Source: Chloroflexota bacterium (lineage in GTDB: Bacteria; Chloroflexota; UBA11872; VXOZ01). Taken from it: 64,000 bases of DNA. Positions 5,870-6,835 of this stretch are shown here, piece by piece. The position numbers and the translations under genes were made by a program. The notes under the pieces are model-generated. The model made no database searches and had not been told where the DNA came from. It was given only the letters and a program-made list of their open reading frames with translations. The stretch is taken from the NCBI GenBank assembly GCA_963662335.2, contig CAXXVD010000001.1, forward strand, positions 256,001-320,000, in the 5' to 3' direction. Positions within the stretch are counted from its first letter, which is position 1; every line of letters starts with the position of its first letter.

Positions 5870-6028
5870 ACGGCGTAAAGCCGTGCGGCAAGAGTTGGCG
5901 GGTGTCGGGGCCACTCAGCGAGGCTTTGGCGCAGCCCGCACGCGCGGCTACCGCACGCGCAACGTGCTGAAAGCAAGAGGTGGCGCGCGCGAATCGTGCG
6001 CCCAAGATTACTTCGCAGCGAAAGGAGT

Positions 6029-6499
6029 ATGACCGTGCCTGAGAGTCAGAAAACCCTCCCCCGCGTTTTCAAGTGGTTCGGTGAAGGGAAAGTCGCCTCC
6101 TCCGGTTTCCCTGAAACCGAGGAGCAGTTGTGCGCGGTGGCGGAACAGGGCATCAAGCACATCGTTGCCGCCTCCCGCAAGACGCCGGATACCGAGACCA
6201 TCGAACGCCTCGGCATGACGGTCGACCGCTTCAGTGGCGTCAGCAGCGACGTGGCAACCCTGGACGCCGCCGTGGAGTCGCTCCACGCGGCCGCCCTGCG
6301 CGACGAGAAAGCCCTCGTCCACTGAGGCTCCGGTTTCGGCGGGGCCGGTACGGTCCTGGCAGGATACTTGGTGAAGCACGAAGGTTTTTCCCCGGCGGAC
6401 GCGGTGCAGGCGCTGCGCGATTTTCGCCCCGGCGACTTGAAAGGCGGTGAGGTGGACGCGCTCATTGCCGAGTATGCGGAGAGCCTCACGTCTGGGTGA
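6029..6499 (+). CDS. PTP/dual-specificity-phosphatase-fold protein with in-frame UGA (6323-6325) at the catalytic Cys position; candidate selenoprotein
   Basis: N-half WFGEGKVASSGFPET...QGIKHIV...KALVH then TGA; the same frame continues GSGFGGAGTVLAGYLVKHEGFSPADAVQALRDFRPGDLKGGEVDALIAEYAESLTSG to TGA at 6497-6499, matching the DSP C-terminal helices. Start is ATG 6029 or GTG 6035 (better spacing from AAGGAG). Confidence 0.75.
6341..6357 (+). promoter_or_regulatory. Candidate bacterial SECIS hairpin
   Basis: GGGGCCG-GUA-CGGUCCU: 7-bp stem (2 G-U pairs), apical loop starting with G 23 nt downstream of the UGA; folded by eye. Confidence 0.55.
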
Positions 6500-6521
6500 C
6501 ATGGCGCTAACTTTGAGTGAG

Positions 6522-6566
6522 AGAAGCCCGCTACGTTTGCCGTAGCGGGCTTCTATTTCTTCGTTT
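6522..6566 (+). terminator. Rho-independent terminator (possibly bidirectional)
   Basis: Perfect 14-bp stem agaagcccgctacg/cgtagcgggcttct with a 5-nt loop, then a T-rich tail; 22 nt after the read-through stop at 6499. Confidence 0.8.
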
Positions 6567-6619: not shown

Positions 6620-6835
6620 CTATTCGCCCTTAGTTGGCGTATTGGCGTCCGGCCCCCTGGCGCTGGCAAAGTAGCCTTCCAACAAACCTTCGATGCGGGC
6701 TAGCCGCTGCTCAATGTTAGAAACGCGACTCTCAAGACTAGACATTCTTCCATCCAGGCTGCGGATTTGCAGCATGAGAAACCCGCCGACCGCAACGCCT
6801 GTGACAACAATGGTTGCAGCAGATTCCCAGTTCAT
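6620..6835 (-). CDS. Small single-TM coiled-coil protein
   Basis: 71 aa: N-terminal hydrophobic helix, then heptad LDGRMSSLESRVSNIEQRLARIEGLL; AAAGGAGAGG RBS upstream. Confidence 0.7.
   Translation of the reverse strand: MNWESAATIVVTGVAVGGFLMLQIRSLDGRMSSLESRVSNIEQRLARIEGLLEGYFASARGPDANTPTKGE

Follow-up and report, generated by a model that had tools for sequence, protein, structure and literature searches.

Does the TGA codon that closes a short open reading frame (ORF) in a Chloroflexota genome end translation there, or does it encode selenocysteine (Sec) at the active site of an enzyme with the protein tyrosine phosphatase (PTP) fold? The question is raised by a locus in a 64,000-nucleotide stretch of DNA (the window; positions 256,001 to 320,000 of contig CAXXVD010000001.1, assembly GCA_963662335.2), for which a preliminary description, made from the letters and their ORFs, had proposed a hidden selenoprotein related to dual-specificity phosphatases (DSPs). 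On the forward strand, the ORF terminates in KALVH-TGA, with the in-frame TGA at 6323–6325. Past this codon another 57 codons (GSGFGGAGTVLAGYLVKHEGFSPADAVQALRDFRPG...) follow in the same frame before a second TGA closes it at 6497–6499; both the first stop and the open extension lie where they had been placed. Our analysis makes it very likely that the locus is a genuine PTP-fold selenoprotein gene.

Orthologues with exactly one in-frame TGA were identified in all 17 genomes of the window's genus (g1, the window's own genome included) and in all nine genomes of a second genus (g5), which belongs to another family of the same class. The encoded proteins share 76–86% amino acid identity with the window protein in g1 and 41–48% in g5. 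The TGA occupies the same alignment column in 26/26 extracted orthologues, within the motif H-U-G-[SGA]-G-[FY]-G-G-A-G-T, where it directly follows an invariant His and thus takes the position of the catalytic cysteine. In the aligned homologues, this column holds Cys in 51 of 51 sequences. Homologues with a conserved TGA and orthologues with Cys had both been named in advance as support for Sec, and both exist, the former in two families. The median pairwise ratio of nonsynonymous to synonymous substitution rates (dN/dS) is 0.114 upstream and 0.125 downstream of the TGA in g1 (136 pairs), and 0.196 upstream and 0.188 downstream in g5 (36 pairs). By these values (0.11–0.20 in all), the part past the TGA is under purifying selection equal to that on the part before it, which the preliminary description had named as support.

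The domain and the predicted fold extend across the TGA. In a Pfam scan of the read-through protein, which returned five families at E ≤ 1, PTP-SAK (PF22784) matches residues 11–125, spanning the TGA, with 55 bits (cut-off 27), and DSPc (PF00782) matches with 38.6 bits (cut-off 33.5). No curated NCBIfam family was assigned, the single sub-threshold match scoring 17 bits against a cut-off of 505. When a profile of nine orthologues was compared with PDB, it matched the bacterial DSP 25xa (E = 1.8e-20), human DUSP23/VHZ (2img, 4erc; E = 5e-18), and SsoPTP, ShufPTP, and Tk-PTP (E about 1e-9 to 2e-8). An AlphaFold2 (AF2) model from a 60-row alignment has a mean predicted local distance difference test score (pLDDT) of 92.9 and a predicted template modelling score (pTM) of 0.88. 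The top Foldseek match of this model is 2img (DUSP23; E = 3.2e-12, template modelling (TM) score 0.80/0.84), with further matches to Tk-PTP, ShufPTP, PTPMT1, and SsoPTP. The residues after the TGA had been matched earlier to the DSP pattern VHCxxGxGRT; this holds for the DSP-type domain and fold, while the canonical motif itself is not present, its Arg being replaced by Gly and its Thr by Ala (GSGFGGAGT).

Selenocysteine machinery and the probable recoding hairpin

The Sec machinery, on whose presence the proposal depended, is encoded in the window's genome (5 contigs, 3.23 Mb, 96% complete). It comprises SelA (E = 1.3e-136), SelB (wing domain, 7.6e-19, within a 623-aa frame), SelD (E = 1.1e-113, with one in-frame TGA), and a tRNA-Sec with anticodon tca. 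The TGA of selD (locus L007) falls in the N-terminal Gly-rich loop (...CAGUAGKLG...), and SelD of this genome is itself predicted to be a selenoprotein. One in-frame TGA each is also present in fdhA, the gene for formate dehydrogenase alpha, and in three AhpC/TSA-like genes, which are peroxiredoxin-like (Prx-like); the Sec contexts are of U-x-x-C type and read WU-x-C, TU-PVC, and GU-INC. Besides the window gene, the genome therefore contains at least five TGA-containing selenoprotein genes, and the selenoproteome of the organism is put at a minimum of seven genes. SelA is present in 26/26 carrier genomes and in 86 of the 98 genomes of the class, and the Sec trait is therefore far wider than the PTP-fold selenoprotein gene.

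A hairpin with a loop G 23 nt past the UGA had been noted in the preliminary description and was recovered here. Its stem runs from C6340-G6358 to G6347-C6351 (8 pairs, including 2 G-U) and closes a loop of G6348-U6349-A6350; the loop G is the 23rd base past the UGA, with GGU at +24 to +26 from the U of UGA. In the bSECISearch model, the apical G of a selenocysteine insertion sequence (SECIS) element lies 16–37 nt from the UGA. Of the 26 orthologues, 25 include this hairpin in their minimum-energy fold. The competing hairpin mentioned earlier (about 6326–6346) can indeed form, and is the minimum-energy fold in one orthologue (L023).

Synonymous sites provide a separate line of evidence. Among 45 columns in which the residue is invariant in 26/26 orthologues and the codon degenerate, 40 use two or more codons and only five use a single one. 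These five are the His preceding the TGA (His-1, CAC) and four consecutive four-fold-degenerate codons at +6 to +9. The latter, GGG GCC GGT ACG (6341–6352), are unchanged in all 26; in the hairpin they take up the upper part of the 5' arm, then the loop and the first bases of the 3' arm. Gly columns elsewhere mostly use GGC, so the fixed GGG and GGT are non-preferred codons and do not reflect codon bias. Four frozen four-fold-degenerate codons at the hairpin apex therefore point to a constraint on the RNA itself. In g1, dS is also lower downstream of the TGA (0.57) than upstream (0.91).

Several observations weigh against the selenoprotein reading. The folding energy of the hairpin is not exceptional for a sequence this rich in G+C when compared with shuffled sequences (z = -1.45; 16 of 200 shuffles as stable), and the support for the hairpin therefore comes from conservation, not energy. 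The stem is almost invariant, and no compensatory base changes occur among the 26 orthologues; the sole change at a paired position is from G-U to G-C, and the lowest pair, C-G, is A.A in g5. An Rfam scan of 6200–6560 at E ≤ 10 gave no SECIS-type family, only weak terminator-like chance matches. The GGAGT peptide is itself invariant, so that the nucleotide conservation is partly protein-level and only the third positions are RNA-specific. Finally, no RNA run was listed for the gene, and Sec insertion in its product is something that we infer from sequence.

Catalytic motifs, proposed chemistry, and alternatives

The motifs of the PTP group, as set out in a preprint (bioRxiv 10.1101/2025.03.26.645524), are the (H/V)CX5R(S/T) P-loop, the general-acid Asp of the IPD-loop, the Gln of the Q-loop, and the Glu of the E-loop. 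The corresponding columns were counted in the 60-row alignment, which consists of 51 Cys homologues and nine Sec forms. The P-loop Arg is present in 51/51 Cys homologues and is Gly in 9/9 Sec forms; the next column is Thr in 47 and Ser in one of the 51, and Ala in 9/9 Sec forms. Both replacements are found in 26/26 orthologues. The general-acid column holds Asp in 41 and Asn in six of the Cys homologues; eight Sec forms have Ser there and one has Thr, and the next three columns are deleted in the Sec forms. In the HMMER alignment to VHZ, it is an invariant Gly70, not Ser/Thr, that stands opposite the general-acid Asp. The Q-loop Glu (44/51) is replaced by Lys (6) or Pro (3), the Q-loop Gln (50/51) by Val (9/9), and the E-loop Glu (38/51) by Arg (4), Gln (3), or Ser (2). 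His98, Gly102, Gly104, Gly107, and Thr108 are retained in the Sec clade, and the Sec forms have no second conserved Cys. Lys15, Asp54, D/E74, Asp79, Lys94, and Asp136 are invariant specifically within this clade. Among the 150 best representatives, no Cys protein with an Arg-less P-loop was found: 156 HC-x5 motifs are followed by Arg, and the four non-Arg HC-x5 matches lie outside the P-loop, judged by reading of the strings. On these columns, the predicted Sec clade departs from Cys-based PTPs in the P-loop signature, the general-acid Asp, the Q-loop Gln, and the E-loop Glu.

An orthologue-profile search of 1.84 billion representatives gave 2877 matches at E ≤ 1e-3. The best representatives fall into two groups, full-length Cys proteins and fragments of 96–99 aa that end in ...[VL][LI]-H. 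Fragments P0003 and P0004 are from g1/g5, and P0008, P0010, P0012, and P0140 are more divergent; in the source databases, the 96–99 aa fragments are annotated as 'hypothetical protein' or are nameless. In a phylogenetic tree, built by a quick search with the Sec column kept in and rooted at the midpoint, the four divergent fragments group with nine full Sec forms in one clade with a Shimodaira–Hasegawa-like approximate likelihood ratio (SH-aLRT) of 99 and a stem of 0.72, apart from 58 Cys homologues. The tree places the putative Sec family in at least six lineages at the 50% level with a single origin, the divergent four being known as protein fragments alone. The Cys set includes a canonical Cys paralogue that every g5 genome (L037–L045) carries in addition, elsewhere in the genome, and that is 32–37% identical; it has the P-loop HCAAG[LR]GRTGT and the motifs PV-x-D-F-AAP and SVETxxQ. 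In g1, only the Sec form turned up in these searches. The best full-length match of the profile search, P0002 (603 aa), has four tandem DSP domains, the first without the HC motif and the others with HCxxGxGR[AT]G.

In the mechanism that we propose, SelB with Sec-tRNA(Sec) would recognise the hairpin at 6340–6358, 15–33 nt past the UGA; Sec would be inserted at codon 99, and translation would run to the second TGA at 6497. The product, of about 155 aa, would form a single domain of the DUSP23/VHZ–SsoPTP type of PTP fold, with a selenolate at the catalytic-cysteine site, where a glycine-rich anion-binding loop has its base. The Sec clade would be a neofunctionalised offshoot of Cys-containing DSPs, on whose long stem branch Sec would have been gained and the P-loop Arg, the next Thr, the general-acid Asp, the Q-loop Glu/Gln, and the E-loop Glu replaced. 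The Sec nucleophile may act on a less anionic substrate, in sulfur or selenium (persulfide/perselenide) transfer. A peroxide- or oxyanion-reducing redox cycle, completed by an external thiol, would be an alternative chemistry.

The joint loss of the other phosphate-handling residues suggests that the fold was recruited for new chemistry. Because the phosphate- and water-handling residues were replaced jointly while purifying selection was kept, we lean, by a narrow preference, towards a Sec enzyme that no longer hydrolyses phosphate esters and that would act on a less anionic substrate via Sec. That a DUSP23-like scaffold, having lost its Arg, Asp, Gln, and Glu residues for phosphate handling and holding a selenolate in a Gly-rich cradle, carries out a reaction new for the fold, and does so only in a few uncultured Chloroflexota lineages and at least four more divergent metagenomic ones, we regard as an evenly balanced proposition. 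The preliminary description of a Sec-containing PTP-fold enzyme stands as far as a PTP-fold selenoprotein is concerned; the phosphatase that it implied, and with it the label 'phosphatase', is doubtful now that Arg in the P-loop, Asp as general acid, and Gln in the Q-loop are all seen to be replaced.

The strongest competitor, which we consider rather unlikely, is that the protein does contain Sec but has remained a phosphatase, in which the selenolate (a stronger nucleophile and a better leaving group), the backbone amides of the Gly-rich loop, and the acidic residue D/E74 offset the lost Arg, Asp, and Gln. In fold and in Pfam family the protein belongs with the DSPs, and Arg130 and Arg133 are kept together with the nucleophile position and the His, Gly, and Thr residues listed above. 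The acidic residue at position 74 is conserved, one to four positions past the lost Asp, and could be the general acid, and the greater nucleophilicity of Sec might make up for the lost Arg. These points count against a loss of phosphate-ester hydrolysis. The functional proposal is built on absent residues and on analogy, and the gene neighbourhood, which is not conserved between g1 and g5, gives no functional clue. To our knowledge, however, nearly all natural Sec enzymes perform redox or chalcogen chemistry, which bears against a phosphatase. Every Sec form has lost five signature residues that are near-invariant in the 51 Cys homologues, and the preprint cited above (bioRxiv 10.1101/2025.03.26.645524) treats the CX5R P-loop, together with the general-acid Asp and the Q-loop Gln, as the motifs that define catalysis.

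A reading in which translation truly ends at the UGA, or in which a standard tRNA decodes it, with a 98-aa N-terminal fragment or a Trp/Cys protein as the functional product, is far less probable. Gene callers do annotate products of 96–99 aa. However, the part downstream of the UGA is constrained in the same frame (dN/dS as above) and has neither a start codon nor a ribosome-binding site ahead of it. Both halves are required for the domain and the predicted fold, the stop would stand exactly at the catalytic-Cys column, and the synonymous freeze at the hairpin apex together with a complete Sec machinery points to Sec insertion. The selenoprotein reading also counts in its favour that TGA is an ordinary stop elsewhere: the upstream 1057-aa ORF ends in TGA, as do 6/26 of the orthologues. 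Decay to a pseudogene by a nonsense mutation, or an artefact of sequencing or assembly, has only the presence of the stop codon itself in its favour and is refuted by the TGA in 26/26 species-level genomes of two families (many of them single-contig assemblies), by the intact downstream selection, and by Logan contigs, drawn from four runs on three samples of one study, which cover the TGA codon without any difference. Differences between the Logan contigs and the window at 6334, 6364, and 6373 are synonymous third positions, as read from the codons, and the one at 6377 changes His to Tyr, as in congeners.

Gene structure, distribution, and neighbourhood

The features of the locus and the other TGA-containing genes of the genome are listed in Table 1. 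The start codon is probably GTG 6035 rather than the ATG chosen in the preliminary description, because in 16 congeners gaaagga lies about 15 nt 5' of the start codon, a spacing that in the window is 15 nt to GTG 6035 and 1 nt to ATG 6029, and because GTG 6035 gives an N-terminal length equal to that of the congeners.

Table 1. Coordinates of the features discussed. Plain numbers are positions in the window; C1 and C5 are contigs of the window's genome (G000).
Feature	Position	Strand	Remarks
Shine-Dalgarno-like gaaaggag	6020..6027	+	also upstream of the start in 16 congeners
Predicted selenoprotein coding sequence	6029..6499	+	ATG 6029 is the start in the preliminary description, GTG 6035 likelier; 154–156 aa product, DUSP23/SsoPTP-like PTP fold
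In-frame TGA, predicted Sec, residue 99	6323..6325	+	P-loop nucleophile position, H-U-G-S-G-F-G-G-A-G-T
SECIS-type hairpin within the P-loop coding sequence	6340..6358	+	8-pair stem, apical loop GUA
Predicted true stop codon TGA	6497..6499	+	in 26 orthologues: TAG 17, TGA 6, TAA 3
Intrinsic-terminator-like hairpin	6522..6554	+	14 pairs, T-rich tail; 3' of the second stop
71-aa ORF	6620..6835	-	see text
selD	C1:382996-383925		one in-frame TGA
fdhA	C5:266479-268341		one in-frame TGA
AhpC/TSA-like gene	C5:322270-322620		one in-frame TGA
AhpC/TSA-like gene	C1:107706-108068		one in-frame TGA
AhpC/TSA-like gene	C1:156732-157091		one in-frame TGA

A terminator had been reported to follow the second stop and not the first. 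This agrees with the 14-pair site in Table 1, and no comparable terminator-like site was found after the TGA at 6323–6325. In most congeners (14 of 17 genus rows counted), a terminator hairpin (...agcccgcta-loop-tagcgggct...) with variable loops lies 20–60 nt past the true stop. This conserved hairpin is predicted to mark the real 3' end of the transcript, beyond the second stop.

All 98 genomes available for the class were searched, and only g1 and g5 are positive; at E ≤ 1e-15 none of the remaining 72 genomes (0/72) has the Sec form. Among 401 genomes sampled across the phylum, TGA-bearing matches occur only in the window's genus (12 genomes). Another 22 genomes of this sample matched without TGA, one match contains TAA, and the match in G264 is an ordinary stop-free homologue. 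A pattern scan of a genome collection retrieved 22 loci from Chloroflexota metagenome-assembled genomes, all already found by the genome search; one of its two patterns back-translated Cys, not TGA, and Sec forms in other phyla could be missed by it. A locus from Acidobacteriota retrieved in the same scan proved to be an ordinary Cys DSP (HCGMGLNRS) and was rejected as a Sec form. A metagenome scan with a degenerate pattern at the Sec codon gave no new lineage, only one contig (L103) that is a near-copy of a congener.

In g1, the gene is flanked by a long ORF upstream, presumably encoding an isoleucyl-tRNA synthetase, and by a class II aminoacyl-tRNA synthetase gene (Pfam) on the other side. 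The 71-aa ORF in Table 1 sits between the terminator and the latter gene; its product is hydrophobic over a stretch at the N-terminus, heptad-like in the C-terminal half, and without a Pfam match. In g5, a DUF2961 gene lies upstream, and a 505-aa secreted-looking protein with GxSxG is encoded downstream, followed by a Gfo/Idh/MocA oxidoreductase. The g5 Sec gene and its downstream genes may form an operon, an arrangement that is not kept in g1. The protein encoded directly downstream in g5 (L093:3514-5031 and equivalents) is about 480–505 aa long, and its gene begins about 40 nt past the Sec gene, behind an AAGGAGG site. It has a signal-peptide-like N-terminus and a nucleophile-elbow-like motif, G-L-S-G-G-G, and is without a Pfam match.

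Comparison with known systems

PTP-superfamily enzymes are Cys-nucleophile catalysts, and oxidation of that Cys is a much-studied regulatory switch. A natural Sec at the PTP nucleophile, if true, would be a test case for selenium in nucleophilic catalysis and for oxidation resistance in the PTP fold. The family has been mis-annotated as a hypothetical protein of 96–99 aa, and adding it would correct Chloroflexota annotation and extend the bacterial selenoproteome.

The preliminary description did not recognise this family among bacterial selenoproteins, and the texts searched agree with it. The word 'phosphatase' is absent from the main text of a 2026 review of the prokaryotic selenoproteome (PMC13188914), the deep-Sep paper (PMC12013277), a 2022 review with a family table (PMC9312934), the BSepDB paper (PMC13326102), and the preprint 'Eight unexpected selenoprotein families'. 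In the searched text of the GOS paper (PMC2398784), it occurs only for PP2C domains fused to Prx. A full-text literature search combining selenoprotein or selenocysteine with dual-specificity or tyrosine phosphatase gave nothing relevant, with supplementary family lists and subscription journals outside its coverage. The family is very probably a previously unlisted selenoprotein family, with a prior listing possible in supplementary family tables. What is new is a selenoprotein family and an aberrant DSP branch, not a categorically new system.

The window hairpin resembles the hairpins found elsewhere in this genome, in fdhA and the Prx-like genes, in that it lies inside the coding sequence, a short way 3' of the UGA; in these genes the apical GGU/GU is 21–29 nt past the U. 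Unlike theirs, its apical loop is of 3 nt (GUA) and closed by G-C, with no bulged U evident.

The family table of PMC9312934 lists rhodanese-related sulfurtransferases as predicted selenoproteins of prokaryotes. They resemble the window protein in that Sec stands in for the catalytic Cys at the bottom of an anion-binding active-site loop, in being small alpha/beta domains, and in that their function is predicted. Unlike the window protein, which has the class I PTP/DSP fold, they have the rhodanese/Cdc25 fold. The DUF442 domain of Blh is, according to PMC5823870, a PTP-fold domain with thiosulfate:cyanide sulfur transferase activity. Its use of a PTP-type fold for sulfur transfer, not phosphate hydrolysis, is a precedent for the chemistry proposed here. 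DUF442 differs from the window protein in its use of Cys, in its fusion to a persulfide dioxygenase, and in its place within a sulfide-oxidation operon; the neighbours of the window gene are housekeeping genes. Neither Pfam DUF442 nor Rhodanese matches the read-through protein at E ≤ 1, and the likeness to both is one of functional analogy only.

The closest known proteins are DUSP23/VHZ, SsoPTP, Tk-PTP, and 25xa, which, like the window protein, consist of one PTP-fold domain of about 150 aa (Foldseek TM 0.77–0.85; PDB profile E = 1.8e-20 to 9e-10). As in the DUSP23/SsoPTP group, the P-loop opens with an invariant His followed by the nucleophile, and Gly102, Gly104, Gly107, Thr108, Arg130, and Arg133 are kept. 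Unlike in that group, the nucleophile is UGA-encoded and thus predicted to be Sec, the P-loop Arg and the next Thr are replaced by Gly and Ala, the general-acid Asp is replaced by Ser/Thr on a loop three residues shorter, and the E-loop Glu is replaced by Arg/Gln/Ser. The Q-loop reads S-I-E-T-x-x-Q in the DUSP23/SsoPTP group and D-L-K/P-G-x-x-V in the Sec clade.

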